DNA of 64,000 nt from the NCBI GenBank assembly GCA_038065395.1, contig JBBTRB010000002.1, positions 50,647 through 114,646 of the forward strand, read 5' to 3'. The translations under genes were made by a program, and so were the position numbers. The stretch comes from Patescibacteria group bacterium. GTDB taxonomy: Bacteria > Patescibacteriota > Minisyncoccia > Phycocordibacterales > PALSA-1337. Under the pieces are notes generated by a model. It saw nothing but the letters and a program-made list of their open reading frames with translations. It did not search any database and was not told the DNA's origin. Each line of letters starts with the position of its first letter. Positions within the stretch are counted from its first letter, which is position 1. Below are positions 3,645 to 62,890 of this stretch, piece after piece.

Positions 3645-4940
3645 ATGTCCGATACTAAGACTACACATACTACCTACGACGTCGCCGTGATCGGTGGTGG
3701 ACCAGCTGGGATGATGGCCGCGGGACGTGCTGCAGAACGTGGTCTCTCTGTAGTACTCGTCGAGAAGAACGACTCTCTCGGCAAGAAGCTCCTCATCACT
3801 GGTGGAGGTCGCTCCAACATCACCAATGCCGAGTTCGACGAACGTGTCTTCTTGGACAAATTCAAGAACAATGCCAAATTCCTCTTTTCGGCTTTTTCGC
3901 AACACAACGTCGAGAAAAGTCTGACATTCTTCCATGATCACAACATGCCTACCAAGACAGAGGCCGAGAAGCGCGTCTTCCCTACCAGCAACAAGGCTCA
4001 GTCAGTATGGGATGTCCTCGTCGCCTACATGAAGAAGGGCAACGTCACCATCCTTTCCAACACCGAAGTTGGCGCTTTCAACACCGCAGAAAAAGACGGC
4101 ACGACCACGATCGAAAGTCTTCGCCTCAAAAAGAATCCTCACGGTCTCAAAGAGCTCCGTGCCAAGTCTTTCATACTCGCAACCGGTGGTACATCAAGAC
4201 CAGAGACAGGCTCAACAGGTGATGCACTCCCTTGGCTGACCAAGCTCGGCCATACTGTCGTACCTCCATCAGTATCACTCGTACCCGTCTATATTCGTGA
4301 ACCATGGGTCAAGCGCCTCCAAGGTGTCACCGTCAAAGACGTCAAACTCTCACTGATCTCTGACGACAAGAAGATAGAGAGTCATATGGGCAAGATCCTC
4401 TTTACCCACTTTGGTATCAGTGGTCCGACCATACTCAACATGAGTAGTGATATCCGTGAACTCCTCTCGTACGGCAAGGCATACGTGTCACTCGACCTCC
4501 TCCCCAAACACGACTATTCGACACTCAACACAGCTCTCCAAGACCTCTTCAAAAAAGATCACAACAAAAAGATCAAAAACGTCCTCGACGCCCTGATACC
4601 GAGTGCGCTCGTACCTGTTGTGATCGAGATCTCCAAGATCAACCCCGACACCAAGACCAACAGTATCACTCGCGAAGAACGTCTCCATCTCGTCCAGCTT
4701 CTGAAGGATATTCGCATGGAAGCAACAGGACTTCTCGGTACCGACAAAGCCATCGTCACCTCTGGTGGCGTACGACTCCATGAGATCGACTGGAAGACCA
4801 TGTGTTCACGCAAGGTCCCCAACCTCCATATCATCGGTGATGTCCTCGATATCGACCGACCGTCGGGCGGATATAGTCTGCAACTCTGTTGGACGACCGG
4901 GTTTGTGGCTGGAAATTCTGTAGGGAAAAGTGGCAACTAG
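3645..4940 (+). CDS. HI0933/BaiN-like FAD-dependent flavoprotein (aminoacetone-oxidase family oxidoreductase)
   Basis: N-terminal Rossmann dinucleotide motif YDVAVIGGGPAGMMAAGRAAERG. The HI0933-family hallmark LLITGGGRSNITN is present. Confidence 0.8.
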   Translation: MSDTKTTHTTYDVAVIGGGPAGMMAAGRAAERGLSVVLVEKNDSLGKKLLITGGGRSNITNAEFDERVFLDKFKNNAKFLFSAFSQHNVEKSLTFFHDHNMPTKTEAEKRVFPTSNKAQSVWDVLVAYMKKGNVTILSNTEVGAFNTAEKDGTTTIESLRLKKNPHGLKELRAKSFILATGGTSRPETGSTGDALPWLTKLGHTVVPPSVSLVPVYIREPWVKRLQGVTVKDVKLSLISDDKKIESHMGKILFTHFGISGPTILNMSSDIRELLSYGKAYVSLDLLPKHDYSTLNTALQDLFKKDHNKKIKNVLDALIPSALVPVVIEISKINPDTKTNSITREERLHLVQLLKDIRMEATGLLGTDKAIVTSGGVRLHEIDWKTMCSRKVPNLHIIGDVLDIDRPSGGYSLQLCWTTGFVAGNSVGKSGN

Positions 4941-4983
4941 AAAATCACATTGACTTCTCTCATTACTAGTTACCAATTACTGA

Positions 4984-5376
4984 CTACTTAATCGGCAGAC
5001 TCTTCAACATTGCTCTGATCCTCTTGTACTCGGGCACCACCTCTGCGACCAGTTTCCAGAATGCCGGTGAATGGTTGAACTGACCGAGGTGACAAAGTTC
5101 ATGCACGACGACATAGTCACGGATCTCCTCGGGCAGGAATGCCAGACGATAATTGAAACTCAAGCCGCCTCGACGCGAACAACTCCCCCAGCGTGTCTTT
5201 TGATTCTTCACTGAGACCCGAGTATATACGAACCGATAGTGTTGGTTGAAATGCACAACTCGCTCACGAATGATCCGCAACGCCTCGTTCTTATGTGCCA
5301 GGAAGTCGCGTCGTCCCGTCGAGACAACCGATGCGATCTTGCGTCTATATATCCTCCGGAAAAGCCACATGTCCAC
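4984..5376 (-). CDS. YgjP/DUF45-like zinc metallohydrolase
   Basis: HEXXH motif (VVHELCHL) in a context typical of the YgjP/SprT-like WLM fold. Length 130 aa. Confidence 0.65.
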   Translation of the reverse strand: MDMWLFRRIYRRKIASVVSTGRRDFLAHKNEALRIIRERVVHFNQHYRFVYTRVSVKNQKTRWGSCSRRGGLSFNYRLAFLPEEIRDYVVVHELCHLGQFNHSPAFWKLVAEVVPEYKRIRAMLKSLPIK

Positions 5377-5711
5377 AGTATTGCATATTATCTATGCAGT
5401 GCTAAAGTATCCCCTGGTCACGGTCAATATGGAAATTGGTCGTGTATGCACCCGAGCCGGTCGGCCTACCGGTAAAAACAAAACAAAAAAAACAAACGGT
5501 TATGAGTCAACGTTCCAGACCGCCCATTCGGCAACAAACGAGGAACAGCAATCAGTGGAGATTGCCAGCGCCTACCACAAGAAAGTCCCCCGGGATTTTC
5601 GGGGCATTCCATCAGGGGCTCGGCAACTTGGCACGACTTGCCAAGTAACCAAACTCATTCACACATGCAAGCGCGGCAAACCTTCGGTTTGCCGCGCTCT
5701 TCTATTTCAAC

Positions 5712-7115
5712 CTAATCATTCTTACGAAAATCCCTACCCTTATTCCCACCTCTGTCTTCTCGATCTTTCTTTTGGATTTGGATCTTGCCACTAGATTGCT
5801 TTTTGTTTTTCTCGAGACTTTTGACCGCAGAACCCGTGAGAGATTTTGAGTCTACCTTACTCACAGACTCCTTTGTAGAACTTTGTGATCCGGATTTCTT
5901 CGACTTCACACCTTCCTTGAACAAGAGCTCAGCCTCCTTTGCGGCACGTTCTGCTTCGAGGATCTGTGTACGAGCCTCGTCATCTTGGCCACGATCTTGA
6001 TACTCTTCGGCTTGGCGAATATATGCTCGTGCCTCGTCGAGATTGCGCGTCGTCGTATCGAACAGTTTGCCCTGCAATGAACCCGGGGCAACTTTTGTTT
6101 TGGTGATACGTGCGGTTATATCGGCGATCATCTTGTCTGTCGATGCTTTGCGACGAGTGTATGTTGCAGGATCTTTCTGGGAGACTGACTTTTTGGATTG
6201 CACAGAAGACGTAGGAGTCACTTGAGGTTGTGGCGCGATAGGTGCAACAGATGCATCAGAAACGTTGCCAGCCTCATTGGCAGTAGGTGCGGACTCGATC
6301 GACATCATCATCGACATCGTAGCCGCTACAGGGACTTCGGCCACCGAACCCGAACTGCGACTGCCTCGTAGAGACTCGGCACGTGAACGTGCCAGAGATG
6401 CCACCACAATCCTCTTGTCTTGTTTGTCCTCGTCATCCTCCGTGGGTGCCTGTCGTGCGGATCGTGAAGCATCATCCTCAACACTCTTCATCGAACGTGC
6501 TTGCAGAGTGATGCGCGGTGCGTCATTCTCCGCGATCACTTCCAGTACCTGCGCACGAGCACCGAGACCCGCCTGGAATGCCACACTGATCTCGTCAGCG
6601 CGATCTTCGGCACCCTCCTCTCTCACACGCTGCAGAGCACGGTCAAAGTCACGAGTGTGCTGATCTAGACGTGTCTCTATCTCTGCCTGTGTAGTGTCGT
6701 CGAGCTTGCCTGTGGTCGCCAGCACACTTGCTTCTTCGATACGTCGCTCGGCTTTCTCTGCATTCCAGTTCGCCTGTCCCTCCGACGAGACCGTGAGGGT
6801 GTCACGGAGAGGTTCGACGATGTCCACCTTGATCGGGTACAGGACACTTCCTGGCAAAGCTCTCTCTGCCGCAGAGACGACTCCACCACTACCGATGATG
6901 ATGACGAGTGCGAGACTTGCTACTACCCATCGCTGCTGGGTGACCCAGGTATTGAAGGTATATACACTCCATGGACTCTTCACGTGTCGAGGAGTGGCCT
7001 CAGACTGTGCAACAGGCATAGCCACGATACGTGCACGCATCGCGTTTTTCTCTGTATCCGTCATGCGGATATGTTTGAGATCTTCTATTGCTTTGTTGAA
7101 TCTGTTGTCTTTCAT
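5712..7115 (-). CDS. putative membrane-spanning anti-sigma factor / sigma-factor-associated protein
   Basis: Immediately downstream of the ECF sigma gene with a 4-bp overlap. One TM helix near residues 60-80 (VVASLALVIIIGSGGVVSAA). Long charged, low-complexity extracytoplasmic C-terminal region. Confidence 0.45.
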   Translation of the reverse strand: MKDNRFNKAIEDLKHIRMTDTEKNAMRARIVAMPVAQSEATPRHVKSPWSVYTFNTWVTQQRWVVASLALVIIIGSGGVVSAAERALPGSVLYPIKVDIVEPLRDTLTVSSEGQANWNAEKAERRIEEASVLATTGKLDDTTQAEIETRLDQHTRDFDRALQRVREEGAEDRADEISVAFQAGLGARAQVLEVIAENDAPRITLQARSMKSVEDDASRSARQAPTEDDEDKQDKRIVVASLARSRAESLRGSRSSGSVAEVPVAATMSMMMSIESAPTANEAGNVSDASVAPIAPQPQVTPTSSVQSKKSVSQKDPATYTRRKASTDKMIADITARITKTKVAPGSLQGKLFDTTTRNLDEARAYIRQAEEYQDRGQDDEARTQILEAERAAKEAELLFKEGVKSKKSGSQSSTKESVSKVDSKSLTGSAVKSLEKNKKQSSGKIQIQKKDREDRGGNKGRDFRKND

Positions 7116-60344: not shown

Positions 60345-60722
60345 ATGGAACGTCCAATTCGAAAAGCTAGCAGCAGTAATGATAGTCCTACAAACAATTC
60401 GGAGAGTGCTAGAGTTTTTTATGGAATACAAGCAAAACTCAAGCTTCATAAAAGAGGTACTCACGAAAGCAGAGAAGCTCGGCGTAGAGAAGCCTTGAGG
60501 CTTGAACATCTCGAATACTTGAAGTTGATAAGTAACGAGAGGTGCGACACGAGCCAGGAACACCCTTTTGTACTCATCAACTACCGCAATGGAAACAAGA
60601 GGATTCTGTATCAGATGTTAACTCATCAGCAAACTCGGGAGAGAAATAAATTCCTAGCTGGTACGGGAAAAGCTTGGGCAAAGATAGATCCAAGCAAATT
60701 CCCGAAGCATGCACTCAGATAG
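60345..60722 (+). CDS. hypothetical protein (R/E-rich)
   Basis: 125-aa ORF with a canonical terminator downstream. Lower-GC region. Confidence 0.4.
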   Translation: MERPIRKASSSNDSPTNNSESARVFYGIQAKLKLHKRGTHESREARRREALRLEHLEYLKLISNERCDTSQEHPFVLINYRNGNKRILYQMLTHQQTRERNKFLAGTGKAWAKIDPSKFPKHALR

Positions 60723-60776: not shown

Positions 60777-61601
60777 TTATTCATGATTGATTTTTTCGAT
60801 GATATTCTTAATGTATTCTTCTTGATTAACTTTCCTTCCATATCCTCGCGCAAGATCAAAAAGTTCCTTCAGAAAATGAAGCATGTCTTTATTCTTTATC
60901 TCCAAAGCAACTTCGTCCTTCCAATTGATAAGAAAGGCCACATCTCTGAACATCATCAATTCAGTTTCCGCATTTAAATACTCGTTCGATACGAATACCA
61001 TGTCGGTAGTACGACCGATGAAGCTTTTCAGAATCTCCTCTTTTTGAACAGGATCCTTCACAAGCGAGGTGAGTGTCGGATAGTAGTCCTCCCGAAGCAG
61101 ACCTTCCACGATAATCTTATTATTGCGAATACTGTCTTGTATCGGCTGAAGATTCTTCCAAGAAATGCCCCTGAGAACATTTTTTAATGAAGCTGTTGGC
61201 TGAATACCGATCAACCTCTCATCCTTGTGACCCTGGGCAATTCTTTCAAAAATAGAAAAAAGGCTCGGTAGACCACGCAAAACTGCAAAGCCTGTTGAAT
61301 CATCGTGAGTTATTTCGACTCGCTCTTCTGAGTCATGTGCCAGCTTTGCAGTAGAAATAAGTATATCCGATAGCTCTTTGTCTGATATTCGAAGCCAAAA
61401 CCGTCTTTTCCCCTTTATTTTTGAATAGATGATACCTCGGGACTTGAGGGCAGCTAATGCCAAATAGGCACTCATCCGTGGTATTTTGGCCTTTTTTGAA
61501 GTGTCGCTTACAGAAAATGGCTCTTTGGTGTCTAAGACAGTAAAAATTTTCTCTTCATGAGAAGTTAGATTTAAGAGCTTTGATATGTTTTCCATGACCA
61601 A
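60777..61601 (-). CDS. winged-HTH (TrmB/MarR-like N-terminus) putative transcriptional regulator
   Basis: The N-terminal 70 aa read as a wHTH (EKIFTVLDTKEPFSVSDTSKKAKIPRMSAYLALAALKSRGIIY). The remaining 200 aa are unassigned. Divergent from the radical SAM gene. Confidence 0.5.
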   Translation of the reverse strand: MVMENISKLLNLTSHEEKIFTVLDTKEPFSVSDTSKKAKIPRMSAYLALAALKSRGIIYSKIKGKRRFWLRISDKELSDILISTAKLAHDSEERVEITHDDSTGFAVLRGLPSLFSIFERIAQGHKDERLIGIQPTASLKNVLRGISWKNLQPIQDSIRNNKIIVEGLLREDYYPTLTSLVKDPVQKEEILKSFIGRTTDMVFVSNEYLNAETELMMFRDVAFLINWKDEVALEIKNKDMLHFLKELFDLARGYGRKVNQEEYIKNIIEKINHE

Positions 61602-61749
61602 ATCATATCAAATGACAATAAAACTAGCAAACTGTATGTACGTAATATGGCTCTATATAATAATAAAATAGATAAAATGTAGCTTTGAGTGAAAAAAGTA
61701 TTTAAATATTTCTTTATAACATATTCTTTGATCAGTAAAGATCTTTACA

Positions 61750-62709
61750 ATGAAACCAATAGAAAAATGGCTCAACCAAAGCCTCACCAAAATAGAACCA
61801 ATGCGAATCATCGCTACCACAGAAGCTCGGTGTAACCTTGCCTGTGAACATTGCTACTGGGCTCATGATATGAGTTCGGCACCAATAAGCGACTGGCGAC
61901 CAGCGGCCAGGAAAATTGCTAACCTCGGTGTGCCTGTATTTTTTGCAGGCCGAATCCTCACTCCAAATGGAGCTTTCTTCCTGAAACACTGTATTAGTGA
62001 AGGGATCAAAGAGATTGGTATTGTCGATAATGGCTATACCATTCTCACCGAACCAAATCTACTTCCCCACTACACATCTATCAACATTTCCATTGATGGT
62101 TGGCGTGAAAAGCACGACCAACAAAGAGGAAAAGTCGGCGCCTTTGACAAGGCATGGTCTACCGTGATGGAACTCAAAAAACAAGGATACGACCCTATCA
62201 TCTCCTCTGCATTGTCTCCAATCACACTCAATGAGTGGGAAAGGTTCGAAAACCTTCTTGCAGAAAATGATGTACCAGTCAGTTCCACTTTGGTCTGGGC
62301 ACTACCCAACACCGCAAAGCGCGGCACGGCAGTCTTTGCCGAAAAGGAAATGTGTGTAGCTTTCGAGAAACTCATGGGAGGTATTCCAAAGCTCATTAAC
62401 ATTTACTCATTCGAGCATGCGCAAACACTCTGGCCAATCTTGTCACAGCTTCACTGGAACCTGGATACAGAGTTTGGTGATTGCTTGACCGCAACACTCT
62501 CTTCTGGAGTCACTATTGTATATCGTCCCGCGAGCCTGGTATCTGTTTTCGAACTTTCTTTGCAGTGGGATGGGGTTTTCTACACCCCGTTTACCTATGG
62601 CAAAGGCGTACCCGAAGACGAAGTCGACACCTCTTATCTTGAATGGGCACGTAAAACAAACACAACAGAACTTGAATTGTGGTCGTCCATTCTGAAAGGA
62701 GGTGATTAA
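61750..62709 (+). CDS. radical SAM enzyme (single N-terminal CxxxCxxC cluster; no SPASM-like C-terminal Cys cluster)
   Basis: RIIATTEARCNLACEHCYW. Glycine-rich FFAGRILT. TIM-barrel-length protein (319 aa). Confidence 0.8.
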   Translation: MKPIEKWLNQSLTKIEPMRIIATTEARCNLACEHCYWAHDMSSAPISDWRPAARKIANLGVPVFFAGRILTPNGAFFLKHCISEGIKEIGIVDNGYTILTEPNLLPHYTSINISIDGWREKHDQQRGKVGAFDKAWSTVMELKKQGYDPIISSALSPITLNEWERFENLLAENDVPVSSTLVWALPNTAKRGTAVFAEKEMCVAFEKLMGGIPKLINIYSFEHAQTLWPILSQLHWNLDTEFGDCLTATLSSGVTIVYRPASLVSVFELSLQWDGVFYTPFTYGKGVPEDEVDTSYLEWARKTNTTELELWSSILKGGD

Positions 62710-62710
62710 T

Positions 62711-62776
62711 ATGCCCGTCATTGCAGGATCCAAAGGACGCAAAACACCGCGTCCGAAACAGAAAGGTGGTGATTAG
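62711..62776 (+). CDS. short basic peptide gene 1 (MPVIAGSKGRKTPRPKQKGGD); candidate substrate peptide or small basic protein
   Basis: ATG 2 nt after the rSAM stop. Perfect SD AAAGGAGGTGAT embedded in the rSAM 3' end. Near-identical to peptide 2. Confidence 0.5.
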   Translation: MPVIAGSKGRKTPRPKQKGGD

Positions 62777-62777
62777 T

Positions 62778-62837
62778 ATGGCAGTTATTGCCGGATCGAA
62801 GGGGCGCAAGGCTCCTCGTCCAAAACGTAAGAGTTAG
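62778..62837 (+). CDS. short basic peptide gene 2 (MAVIAGSKGRKAPRPKRKS)
   Basis: ATG 2 nt after the peptide-1 stop. SD AAAGGTGGTGAT embedded in the peptide-1 3' end. Terminator follows. Confidence 0.5.
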   Translation: MAVIAGSKGRKAPRPKRKS

Positions 62838-62844
62838 TAACACA

Positions 62845-62876
62845 CCGGCTTCCACAAGGAGGCCGGTCTTTTTATT
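62845..62876 (+). terminator. rho-independent terminator
   Basis: ccggcttccacaaggaggccgg followed by tctttttattt. Confidence 0.6.
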
Positions 62877-62890
62877 TCAATGCTATTGTG

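Follow-up and report, generated by a model that had tools for sequence, protein, structure and literature searches.

The window, i.e., the whole stretch of 64,000 nucleotides that was analysed, carries near its end a short cassette in which a radical SAM gene is followed on the same strand by two very small peptide genes and an intrinsic terminator, with a transcription regulator encoded divergently upstream:

60777-61601, minus strand: TrmB-type transcription regulator, 274 aa from a TTG start (272 aa according to NCBI), with an N-terminal wHTH and a PLD-fold effector-like domain without the HKD motif
61610-61631, no strand assigned: candidate operator, aaaTGACAataaaacTAGCAaa, a degenerate copy of the palindrome AAATGACA-N7-TGTCAATT
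61750-62709, plus strand: radical SAM gene, 319 aa, with the cluster motif C28-N-L-A-C32-E-H-C35-Y and the C-terminus KGGD-TAA
62694-62709, plus strand: Shine-Dalgarno block 1, GAAAGGAGGTGATTAA, inside the last codons and the stop of the radical SAM gene (the longer block, GAAAGGAGGTGATTAATATG, spans 62694-62713)
62711-62776, plus strand: peptide gene 1, MPVIAGSKGRKTPRPKQKGGD-TAG, 21 aa, one A-G-S-K-G-x3-P-R-P unit
62761-62776, plus strand: Shine-Dalgarno block 2, GAAAGGTGGTGATTAG, inside the last codons and the stop of peptide gene 1 (the longer block, GAAAGGTGGTGATTAGTATG, spans 62761-62780)
62778-62837, plus strand: peptide gene 2, MAVIAGSKGRKAPRPKRKS-TAG, 19 aa, one unit
62844-62877, plus strand: intrinsic terminator of the radical SAM-peptide operon, a 10-bp stem with 7 GC pairs and a 4-nt loop (62844-62867), then the T-run CTTTTTATTT

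Gene arrangement and the divergent regulator

An earlier, sequence-only reading of this DNA had located the 319-aa radical SAM gene with its CNLACEHCY cluster and KGGD-TAA end, the two peptide genes, the strong terminator behind them and the Shine-Dalgarno blocks inside the ends of the upstream ORFs, and all of these are indeed present where it placed them. It gave the spacers between stop and ATG as 2 nt, however, and the sequence reads 1 nt in both cases (TAA-t-ATG and TAG-t-ATG). It also called the two peptide genes near-identical, which holds for the peptides but not for the DNA, because eight third positions differ synonymously over the 19 shared codons, and the local fall in GC content that it noted is real (0.33-0.47 in the cassette) but only modest when compared with the value of about 0.50 on either side. 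Since the three ORFs occupy different frames, and their stops are TAA and TAG, an origin of the peptides by read-through or recoding is ruled out. A strong Shine-Dalgarno sequence stands in front of every peptide-gene copy examined, and the C-termini of the orthologous enzymes (KGGD, KGGE, RGGD or KGGG) are as expected from its being embedded in the 3' end of the radical SAM gene. Hairpins equivalent to the terminator of the window follow the last peptide gene in the orthologous loci L001, L003, L004, L006, L011, L013 and L014, and an Rfam search of the window locus returned nothing relevant.

The wHTH regulator that had been seen upstream is of the TrmB type: its wHTH matches PF01978 with 30 bits (cut-off 25.6) and is accompanied by a TrmB-like effector domain. 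A divergent regulator of this kind is found in most orthologous loci, with a perfect TGACA-N7-TGTCA palindrome in L002, L003, L013, L161 and L165, TGACG-N7-TGTCA in L163 and GTGACG-N7-CGTCAC in L004, always at the same position, beside the start codon of the regulator. We take this palindrome to be the putative operator of the regulator; the candidate copy in the window overlaps a promoter-like site of the minus strand (61630-61602). The idea that the upstream wHTH protein could be an RRE-like peptide chaperone was rejected in view of its full TrmB architecture, the palindrome in its own promoter and its paralogues, which form divergent pairs with genes for LivJ-like solute-binding proteins with no radical SAM gene nearby. 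The regulator is a generic TrmB-type protein and no RiPP-specific component.

The peptide family and its linkage to the enzyme

The peptides of the window are members of a family of 16-26 aa that shares, from residue 5 onwards, the unit A-G-[S/P]-K-G-x3-P-[R]-P. G6, K8, P13 and P15 are invariant in the peptide alignment and, numbered from the basic residue, the conserved positions of the unit are G(-2), K/R(0), G(+1), P(+5) and P(+7), while positions +2 to +4 and the tail vary from unit to unit. The strict form of the motif, AG[SP]KG...P.P, occurs 27 times when 169 kb of orthologous loci are translated in six frames, but not once in 836 kb of control loci around unrelated radical SAM genes, nor in the remaining 61 kb of the window, so that its recurrence is beyond chance. 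Furthermore, the unit occurs in 41 distinct DNA versions that, with the amino acids fixed, draw on every Gly, Pro and Ala codon, on six codons for Arg and on the two codon families of Ser, which argues for translation of the peptides and for selection on the small ORFs as coding sequence. This codon pattern, together with copy numbers of one to four, supports the earlier proposal of real, translated genes arisen by tandem duplication.

Could the small ORFs be, instead, chance ORFs or untranslated remnants left 3' of the radical SAM gene? A collection of 15 billion proteins contains neither window peptide as an exact sequence, and none of the annotation pipelines represented in it has called their genes, which is what chance ORFs would look like. 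Against this stand the motif and codon counts, by which this explanation is effectively refuted, as well as the strong Shine-Dalgarno sequence at every copy and the ten further two-unit peptides recovered by a peptide-profile search, which are called as genes elsewhere; we regard its probability as practically nil. Two of these ten lie on contigs that agree in length and source with those bearing the radical SAM homologues P0043 and P0046. None of the curated families in Pfam and NCBIfam matches the peptides, including their relatives of 41-83 aa with two or three units.

The linkage between peptide and enzyme is just as regular. Small ORFs with the motif adjoin the radical SAM gene, on the same strand, in all 22 orthologous loci that could be assessed, i.e., the recurrence that the earlier reading had proposed as a check and the adjacency of precursor and modifying enzyme that is expected of RiPPs. 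There are one to four peptide genes per locus, or two to three units per ORF, and the genes usually lie downstream of the enzyme gene, the exceptions being L009, L015 and the second pair of L008, where they lie upstream. The distant enzymes of L014 and L016 are paired with [ST][KR]G-H-x-[IV]-PRP peptides and those of L011, L013, L161 and L163 with multi-unit PP[RV]P peptides; judging by these pairings, the peptide variants track the enzyme subclades. The flanking genes differ between loci, no third gene is conserved beyond the TrmB-type regulator in the loci compared, and 18 loci revealed no conserved protease, transporter/exporter or immunity gene. Neither Pfam nor NCBIfam has a model for the enzyme-peptide system, and a full-text literature search found no paper on a radical SAM-AGSKG peptide system.

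In composition, the peptides are rich in Lys, Arg and Pro, with a pI of 11-12 and a net charge of +5 to +7. This would suit peptides that work unmodified, as polycationic binders of nucleic acids or ribosomes or as antimicrobial-like agents, and that share an operon with an unrelated enzyme; their PRP motifs recall proline-rich antimicrobials and the L016 peptide has a hexapeptide, YIPRPR, that also occurs in Api137. Nevertheless, we consider such a role quite improbable, given a linkage that stays strict over 22 loci despite varying gene order and flanking genes, some 22 enzyme clusters that are not seen without peptides, and a conserved part that is a spaced motif, G-x-K-G-x3-P-x-P, beyond mere charge.

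As regards the chemistry that such peptides would allow, those of the window contain no Cys, Trp or Tyr and the invariant positions of the family are G, K, P and P, so the exclusion of cross-link classes that depend on Cys, Trp or another aromatic residue in the core (sacti- and ranthipeptides, streptide, darobactin, triceptides) stands. The epimerisation of Val/Ile that had been left as conceivable is, in contrast, not favoured: where the window peptides have V-I, other members have G, L, F, A or P, and the enzyme has no conserved Cys outside the cluster. No architecture of leader or follower plus core, with an RRE or another leader-binding element, was recognised, although the basic C-terminal tail of the peptides could serve as a follower.

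The radical SAM enzyme

By the criterion of a partial TIM-barrel core or the PF04055 model, the enzyme belongs to the radical SAM superfamily, its score against the Pfam Radical_SAM model (24 bits) falling short of the gathering cut-off (29.5). Within it, the enzyme stands in a small orphan clade with sharp limits: of 1.84 billion representatives, about 22 clusters (50% identity) belong to it, almost every member coming from a Patescibacteria MAG, and the clade is present in 17 of the 185,579 GTDB species representatives. C28, C32 and C35 (CX3CX2C) are the only Cys kept in 35 of 35 family sequences, other Cys being variable (position 81 is Cys in 19 of the 35 and position 245 in 13), so that the lack of a second Cys-rich or SPASM region, first read from the single window protein, is true of the whole family; the SPASM-family models cover the N-terminal core only. 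There is no RRE domain in the enzyme, nor any N-terminal domain ahead of the cluster loop, which begins at residue 28. With a median net charge of -8, the enzymes of the family are acidic, and they contain much Trp (about 11 residues in 320 aa), features that complement peptides of +5 to +7.

Curated families (Pfam, NCBIfam, PADLOC) give weak, core-level matches and do not assign the enzyme, no NCBIfam-type score exceeding 31 bits where the cut-offs lie at 170-850 (300-850 for the maturase models); the PqqE and MftC models are absent among the best 25 curated matches listed, all of at most 31 bits. A profile search of the PDB places SkfB nearest (E 4e-14), followed by BlsE (7e-8), YydG (a weak match, E 9e-4, over residues 16-111 only) and anSME, and the nearest structures by fold comparison are SkfB, SuiB, viperin, anSME, ChlB, BlsE and CteB. 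Membership of the anSME/AslB family was not found: the model TIGR03942 scores 18.5 bits against a cut-off of 349, and the anSME substrate motif (C/S)-x-P-x-R is absent from the peptides, in which Ser(-1) precedes K-G, some units having P, T, N or C in its place. The label "AslB" that JGI gives to some homologues is a generic COG label. The enzyme is an orphan clade of the SPASM/twitch-type group that lacks the auxiliary-cluster Cys and the RRE. It falls into no non-peptide family and has SkfB as nearest solved relative by profile, which lends support to the earlier reading of a RiPP-like locus.

Two further explanations have to be weighed against these data. Like viperin or BlsE, the enzyme might act on a small molecule (a nucleotide, a sugar or an amino acid, for example), with the peptides as a co-expressed partner, e.g., a carrier, an acceptor of the product, an activator or a cationic delivery vehicle. 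In the SPASM-type group, going without auxiliary clusters is typical of enzymes with small-molecule substrates, such as these two, more than of peptide-modifying ones; both are also among the best fold matches, and besides the BlsE match the PADLOC pVip HMM gives 25 bits, over the radical SAM core alone. The regulator would fit as well, since known TrmB members sense sugars, its fold matches the sugar-binding domain of TrmB and its paralogues adjoin solute-binding-protein genes. However, the viperin model NF038283 reaches only 17.1 bits (cut-off 180) and viperin is not among the PDB profile matches at E<=0.01, and on these two results a viperin-like defence enzyme was rejected as a family assignment and retained as a mechanistic rival. 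Nor is any nucleotide- or sugar-handling gene conserved in the cassette, and a precise 11-residue unit that is conserved, repeated within ORFs and always located beside the enzyme would be left unexplained. Altogether, we hold a small-molecule substrate to be fairly unlikely.

Alternatively, the peptide may be consumed as the scaffold from which a small cofactor or metabolite is made, as in PQQ or mycofactocin, so that the end product would not be a peptide. The precursors are indeed very short and leaderless, no RiPP protease or exporter goes with them, and few residues are invariant (K, P, P and Gly), as is the case for the Glu and Tyr of PqqA, whose gene is itself multi-copy in some cases. 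Nonetheless, tailoring enzymes, genes resembling PqqB/C/D or MftB/D/E and an RRE chaperone are all missing from the conserved part of the cassette, the spotty, accessory distribution of the family is unlike that of a core cofactor, and the variable residues within the unit, as well as the two to three units per ORF, look like diversification of a product. These points make a scaffold role very unlikely.

Proposed mechanism and comparison with known systems

The reading that we favour, and judge to be rather probable from the sequence comparisons, is that of an undescribed cassette, almost wholly restricted to Patescibacteria, that makes radical-SAM-modified short peptides, i.e., a leaderless RiPP-like system of a new type. 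The data show the genes with their conservation and linkage, the selection on the coding sequence, and the fold and cluster motif of the enzyme; from these we infer that the peptide is the substrate, where in it the enzyme attacks, which site is the operator and how the operon is regulated. The divergently made TrmB-type regulator would bind the TGACA-N7-TGTCA-type palindrome in the shared promoter region and control the operon in response to a ligand. A single mRNA would span the radical SAM and peptide genes and stop at the terminator, and the peptides would be made in step with the enzyme, or in excess of it, because a near-perfect Shine-Dalgarno sequence sits inside each preceding ORF. The enzyme is predicted to hold one [4Fe-4S] cluster on C28, C32 and C35 and to cleave SAM into the 5'-deoxyadenosyl radical. 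Lacking an RRE, and faced with leaderless peptides, it would recognise each A-G-[S/P]-K-G-x3-P-[R]-P unit directly, with two to three units in some precursors, and might abstract a hydrogen atom at or beside the glycine-flanked invariant Lys/Arg. The lack of an auxiliary cluster and of a conserved extra Cys makes a redox-neutral or RS-cluster-recycled outcome (possibly an epimerisation, a rearrangement or the formation of an aliphatic C-C or C-N bond with the PxP segment) more likely than an oxidative cross-link of the sacti-, ranthi- or cyclophane type. We know of no radical SAM peptide chemistry that fits a Lys/Gly/Pro motif, and the reaction therefore cannot be named. The product would be a short, polycationic, Pro-rich peptide of about 2 kDa.

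The one to four genes, the two to three units per ORF and the variable positions resemble multi-core RiPP precursors and would speak for this leaderless RiPP-like reading; the absence of a leader and of a conserved protease, exporter or immunity gene is atypical for RiPPs and speaks against it, and so do the missing auxiliary clusters, the Pfam score below the cut-off and the want of a known radical SAM peptide chemistry for such a motif. In a bolder version, a leader-independent maturase without an auxiliary cluster would perform a new chemistry on the aliphatic Lys/Arg or the Gly/Pro backbone of G-x-K-G-x3-P-x-P, defining a new RiPP class confined to Patescibacteria, whose PRP peptides would act on the ribosome or a chaperone like proline-rich antimicrobials and be used by episymbiotic CPR bacteria on hosts or competitors; as a whole, this version must be called unlikely.

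No other enzymes have yielded as much new peptide chemistry as the radical SAM enzymes and, to our knowledge, almost every known case relies on Cys or aromatic residues, on auxiliary clusters and on a leader peptide. As this family lacks all four, any modification here would probably be a new reaction or a new mode of recognition, and that in a simple system of one 319-aa enzyme and a 19-21-mer peptide. Patescibacteria have tiny genomes and very little known secondary metabolism, and a conserved, regulated, multi-copy peptide cassette could bear on the episymbiont-host interaction in CPR. The invisibility of the window peptide genes to current annotation also exposes a blind spot of gene calling.

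Among known systems, the SPASM/twitch RiPP maturases (SkfB, SuiB, CteB, AlbA, ChlB) share with the window enzyme the motifs CNLxCxHCY, xDNG, ISxDG and HDxQRG, and an enzyme gene adjoining tandem short precursor genes. They differ in having the auxiliary [4Fe-4S] Cys and N-terminal RRE that are missing here (the cluster loop starts at residue 28), in acting on substrates with a leader and with the Cys, Trp or Tyr that the window peptides lack, and in the low score of the enzyme against every curated maturase model (at most 31 bits, with cut-offs of 300-850). The epimerases YydG/EpeE of epipeptides and PoyD/OspD of proteusins are alike in their redox-neutral action on aliphatic peptide residues, and PoyD has no SPASM domain either. 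YydG and PoyD, however, use a non-cluster Cys as hydrogen-atom donor, and the window family conserves none for re-donation; their precursors YydF and PoyA carry long leaders, and the hydrophobic residues (V-I in the window) vary across our peptide family. The family similarity, auxiliary cluster and catalytic Cys that mark YydG/EpeE were not found.

PQQ (PqqA/PqqE/PqqD) and mycofactocin (MftA/B/C) also combine an encoded peptide of about 20-30 aa with a radical SAM enzyme of the same broad clade. In contrast to them, the cassette has no PqqD/MftB chaperone, auxiliary clusters or downstream tailoring genes, its peptides lack the Glu/Tyr pair and the C-terminal Val-Tyr, and the peptide gene usually follows that of the enzyme; neither model scores nor an RRE partner nor a Glu...Tyr or GVY motif point to membership. 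Viperin and BlsE are relatives that lack auxiliary clusters and act on small molecules but, unlike the window family, have no dedicated peptide genes. The likeness to the proline-rich antimicrobials (oncocin, apidaecin/Api137, Bac7) is compositional: about 18-20 aa, polycationic, with PRP motifs. These are eukaryotic peptides (of insects and mammals), cut from larger precursors with no radical SAM modification, and have no counterpart of the conserved AGSKG half. As for the regulator, it shares with the TrmB of P. furiosus the PF01978 wHTH followed by a PLD-fold effector domain, and the palindromic site in its own promoter region; it differs in being bacterial (CPR) and shorter (about 270 aa), a length that suggests the loss of the C-terminal beta-sheet subdomain of the sugar-binding domain.

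Finally, the precursors with repeated motifs, i.e., those of triceptides (3-CyFE) and of PapB ranthipeptides, need an aromatic residue or Cys in the motif and a SPASM enzyme with leader and RRE, whereas the motif of the window family is G-x-K-G-x3-P-x-P. As here, they present a motif of fixed spacing one to three times per precursor and are encoded by tandem genes, and in both cases the enzyme presumably acts once per motif.

Layout of the cassette and its peptide unit

The arrangement described in the sequence-only reading, i.e., a radical SAM gene (rSAM), two short peptide genes (pep1 and pep2), each preceded by a Shine-Dalgarno (SD) sequence, and a terminator, is present in the window as follows.

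Features of the cassette in the window
61750-62709, + strand: rSAM gene, 319 aa, motif C28-NLA-C32-EH-C35-Y, C-terminus ...LKGGD-TAA
ATG 62711, stop 62774-62776, + strand: pep1 gene, product MPVIAGSKGRKTPRPKQKGGD, read from the sequence
ATG 62778, stop 62835-62837, + strand: pep2 gene, product MAVIAGSKGRKAPRPKRKS, read from the sequence
62844-62877, + strand: hairpin of 10 bp (7 GC) and then a T-run, directly 3' of the peptide genes

As also proposed there, the SD is embedded in the final codons of the preceding ORF, within a block GAAAGG(A/T)GGTGATTA(A/G)TATG that stands before both peptide genes, and GC content drops locally, though modestly (0.33-0.47 over the cassette vs ~0.50 on either side). 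The spacers, given as 2 nt, are actually of 1 nt, both from rSAM to pep1 and from pep1 to pep2. Each of the three ORFs has its own frame and a TAA or TAG stop, which makes them separate genes, and an origin of the peptides by read-through or recoding was ruled out on the same grounds. Over their 19 shared codons, pep1 and pep2 show eight synonymous third-position differences; the duplication thus happened long enough ago for silent changes to accumulate while the peptide was kept. An Rfam scan of the window locus gave no relevant match.

Orthologous loci were collected from genomes (L001-L017), from metagenomes (L081-L084) and by exact-protein look-up (L161-L165), and linkage was counted over those with sequence beside the rSAM gene, leaving out L010, L081 and L084, which run off their contigs. 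In all 22 of the 22 assessable loci, adjacent same-strand small ORFs bear the unit A-G-[S/P]-K-G-x3-P-[R]-P (numbered here from its K/R as position 0), which is the recurrence beside orthologous rSAM genes that was to be looked for. Adjacency thus holds throughout, but the expected place immediately 3' of the enzyme does not, the peptide being 5' in L009, L015 and the second pair of L008. The number of units also varies: there are four peptide genes in L001 (MPVLAGSKGRKIPRPKTIRGGD, MAVVAGSKGRIPPRPKR, MALVAGSKGRRIPRPKNKP and MAVIAGSKGRKIPRPQKR), two in L002, and ORFs with two or three units in L003, L004, L011, L013, L161, L163 and L165, and the most distant enzymes are paired with diverged units (...GAVSRGHYIPRP... 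in L014 and L016, MPAPATCKGSSVPRPRKK in L164, MPSCGGNKFKKVPAPKK in L017). The contig L008, from one MAG, carries three paralogous rSAM genes (1312-2724, 4001-4963 and 5671-6837), of which one encodes 470 aa and is extended by 90 aa at the N-terminus. Two separate motif peptides lie on the same contig, the first 3' of the 320-aa enzyme and the second immediately 5' of a 388-aa ORF, so that a genome can contain two or more enzyme-peptide pairs.

Where a peptide has a single unit, this begins at residue 5, and residue 2 is invariably one of the small residues P, A, G or S; in the peptide alignment G6, K8, P13 and P15 are invariant, and A5, G9 and R14 nearly so. Of the 41 units, 38 have K and three have R at position 0, all (41/41) have P(+5) and P(+7), and +2 to +4 and the tail vary. 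The strict motif AG[SP]KG...P.P has 27 occurrences in the family loci (169 kb), vs none either in 836 kb of unrelated rSAM loci from the same scans or in the rest of the window (61 kb). No two of the 41 units share a DNA sequence: Gly, Pro and Ala each appear with all four of their codons, Arg with all six and Ser with both codon families, a pattern that marks selection acting on a translated product. Chance ORFs are excluded by the motif count together with this synonymous codon use. According to another explanation, the products would be unmodified cationic peptides that merely share a transcript with rSAM, against which stand the strictness of the linkage and the precise spacing of the motif.

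A two-unit-peptide profile retrieved ten more unnamed members of 36-52 aa from a set of 5.8 billion proteins, two of them on contigs that match in length and source those of the rSAM homologues P0043 and P0046. No Pfam or NCBIfam model matched the window peptides or their two- and three-unit relatives, and the pep1 and pep2 ORFs (62711-62837), in any start-codon version, are absent from a collection of 15 billion proteins; hence no pipeline has called them, and standard gene callers miss both genes.

The rSAM family

The curated libraries searched (Pfam, NCBIfam and PADLOC) offer no family assignment for rSAM. It scores 24 bits against Pfam Radical_SAM, under the gathering cut-off of 29.5, 25 bits against the PADLOC pVip model and at most 31 bits in NCBIfam, vs cut-offs of 170-850, so that the suggested profile placement reached no family; the NCBIfam matches span only the N-terminal core of SPASM-type enzymes (GeoRSP, NirJ, AlbA, SkfB, DynA and PapB). 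Among 5.8 billion proteins, a word-indexed search picked out 51 homologues (36-100% identity, all of 277-353 aa); the few named ones bear the labels "hypothetical", generic "radical SAM" or COG-style "AslB", and those with taxonomy come from MAGs of Patescibacteria, Moranbacteria, Nomurabacteria or Paceibacterota. When 1.84 billion representatives at 50% identity were searched exhaustively with an HMM, just 22 family proteins reached E<=1e-30, the scores falling from ~118 bits to under 100 bits, where generic SPASM-type enzymes begin. On these scores the family is small and discrete, and it is present in 17 of 185,579 genomes (GTDB species representatives).

In an alignment of 35 rSAM sequences, the residues invariant beyond the cluster Cys include H34, H39, R68, D93-N94-G95, S114-x-D116-G117, H122, Q125-R126, W163, W236, Y258-x-P260 and E307. 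No non-cluster Cys is conserved in it (position 81 is Cys in 19/35 and position 245 in 13/35), in agreement with the lack of a second Cys-rich/SPASM region noticed before. Family members are acidic, with a median net charge of -8, and have unusually many Trp (~11 per protein), and since the cluster loop starts at residue 28, there is no N-terminal RRE domain. The AlphaFold2 model is very confident (pLDDT 95, pTM 0.91), and a profile search of PDB sequences gave SkfB (4e-14), BlsE (7e-8), YydG (9e-4) and anSME (5e-3). By these comparisons rSAM is an orphan offshoot of the SPASM/twitch-type group without auxiliary-cluster ligands. Less probably, rSAM would act on a small molecule and the peptide would be a partner or acceptor. 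The missing auxiliary clusters, the matches of the modelled fold to viperin and BlsE, and the TrmB-type regulator described below favour this reading; the family-model scores and the precise, repeated motif speak against it.

Probable regulator, candidate RNA elements and possible mobility

All-against-all clustering of neighbouring ORFs (18 loci and the window) left a divergent gene for a ~270-aa protein as the sole other conserved gene (15/18 loci), with no conserved protease, transporter or immunity gene. The flanking genes vary, except that P0002, the closest relative, has the window's ClpP...RNase Y neighbourhood. Between clpP and the divergent gene, a 125-aa ORF (60345-60722, + strand) has no family match and, in the same clustering, no conservation in other loci; P0002 has a 102-aa ORF without Pfam match at the equivalent position. 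A peptide-derived cofactor, as another possible product, is at odds with the absence of tailoring genes and with the accessory distribution.

The divergent gene had been read as a wHTH regulator, and its product is indeed a TrmB wHTH protein whose AF2 model (pLDDT 90) matches full-length TrmB, the TrmB sugar-binding domain and PLD-fold nucleases; its alignment has no invariant His or Lys, and it thus lacks the HKD catalytic motif. A palindrome AAATGACA-N7-TGTCAATT, probably the operator of this protein, adjoins the TrmB-type start codon in L002, L003, L013, L161, L163 and L165, ~150-190 nt upstream of the rSAM start; L004 has GTGACG-N7-CGTCAC, and in the window (61610-61631) one half-site is degenerate (TGACA-N7-TAGCA). 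In other CPR genomes (contigs L166 and L167), paralogues with 40-45% identity form tandem arrays, each divergent to a LivJ-type (Peripla_BP_6) solute-binding-protein gene and without rSAM; these look like a family of regulator-transporter modules specific to CPR. Due to the TrmB match, the missing HKD motif, the palindrome and the rSAM-free paralogues, the gene is taken to encode a ligand-responsive regulator whose type is generic among CPR bacteria; the TrmB architecture, palindrome and paralogues argue against a RiPP recognition protein. Enzyme and peptide make up the minimal functional pair.

Other loci show further elements. In one subclade, a ~60-nt hairpin with the invariant loop AGUACU lies just 5' of the rSAM start (L007 1285-1355; L008, L009 and L010 ~3926-3996), with compensatory changes at 6 of 23 predicted pairs in only four sequences. 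This candidate cis-regulatory RNA of the operon matches no Rfam family and does not occur in the window. L005 alone has a type III hammerhead ribozyme match (5068-5122, + strand; 43.4 bits, below the gathering 48.5; E 2.8e-6; core CUGAUGAG...CGAAAC, very short stem II) between the rSAM stop (4948) and the peptide ATG (5201), which, if active, would sever the peptide mRNA from that of the enzyme. Two further conserved non-coding stretches belong to loci with long rSAM-peptide spacers: "ggcataaRagaccgaaMccc...tcaRagcttcattggtagatacgc", 3' of the rSAM stop (~55-165 nt in L008 and L010, ~125-230 nt in L009), and a "GCGTGGCAACA" box just 3' of the peptide stop (L005, L007, L008 and L012). A phage-type integrase directly 3' of the cassette in L161 (4206-5129, - strand) and a Bro-N domain gene near it in L163 (4740-5600, + strand) hint that the cassette may travel on mobile elements; the window has no comparable neighbour. 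The most divergent member, L017 (3989-7524, peptide MPSCGGNKFKKVPAPKKNKK), comes from a MAG labelled Colwellia, outside the CPR labelling, and has no TrmB-type neighbour. Its next two genes encode a PEP-utiliser mobile-domain protein (493 aa) and a PPDK_N ATP-binding protein (288 aa), together a split PEP-synthase-like kinase, which could be an extra tailoring step or unrelated.

Proposed working and comparison with known systems

The idea of a candidate undescribed RiPP-like locus gains support from comparative genomics. We find it fairly probable that the units are rSAM substrates, because the linkage is strict and tolerates rearrangement, the unit is repeated, the genes are amplified in tandem and the enzyme has affinity to peptide maturases. 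With neither leader nor RRE present, rSAM would recognise the unit itself; the glycine-flanked invariant Lys/Arg would be the most plausible residue to enter the active site, and the PxP segment probably docks the peptide. The tolerance of Arg for Lys suggests chemistry on shared aliphatic carbons or backbone, or else a pure anchoring role. Without an auxiliary cluster or a conserved H-donor Cys, thioether/cyclophane-type oxidative cross-links are disfavoured, and the YydG/PoyD-like epimerisation considered before is weakened as well, although Tyr258 could stand in as H-donor. The strong SDs and the coupling suggest peptide synthesis at a stoichiometric level or above, and the product is expected to be proline-rich and polycationic, with a mass of ~2 kDa. 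Its PRP motifs and the hexapeptide YIPRPR of the L016 peptide, which also occurs in Api137, make a resemblance to proline-rich antimicrobial peptides a lead, not a result. The mechanism is inferred throughout.

No published description or curated model of the cassette was found in the literature and curated families searched. It lies outside the SPASM/twitch subfamily and the anSME, viperin, YydG and PQQ/mycofactocin systems, and also outside the sacti-, ranthi-, streptide- and triceptide-type classes, each of which the sequence-only reading had excluded. In its working it most resembles an rSAM-dependent RiPP pathway, but canonical RiPPs use a leader/RRE logic that the cassette does without; what is new here, as far as sequence comparison tells, is an orphan enzyme clade together with its precursor family.
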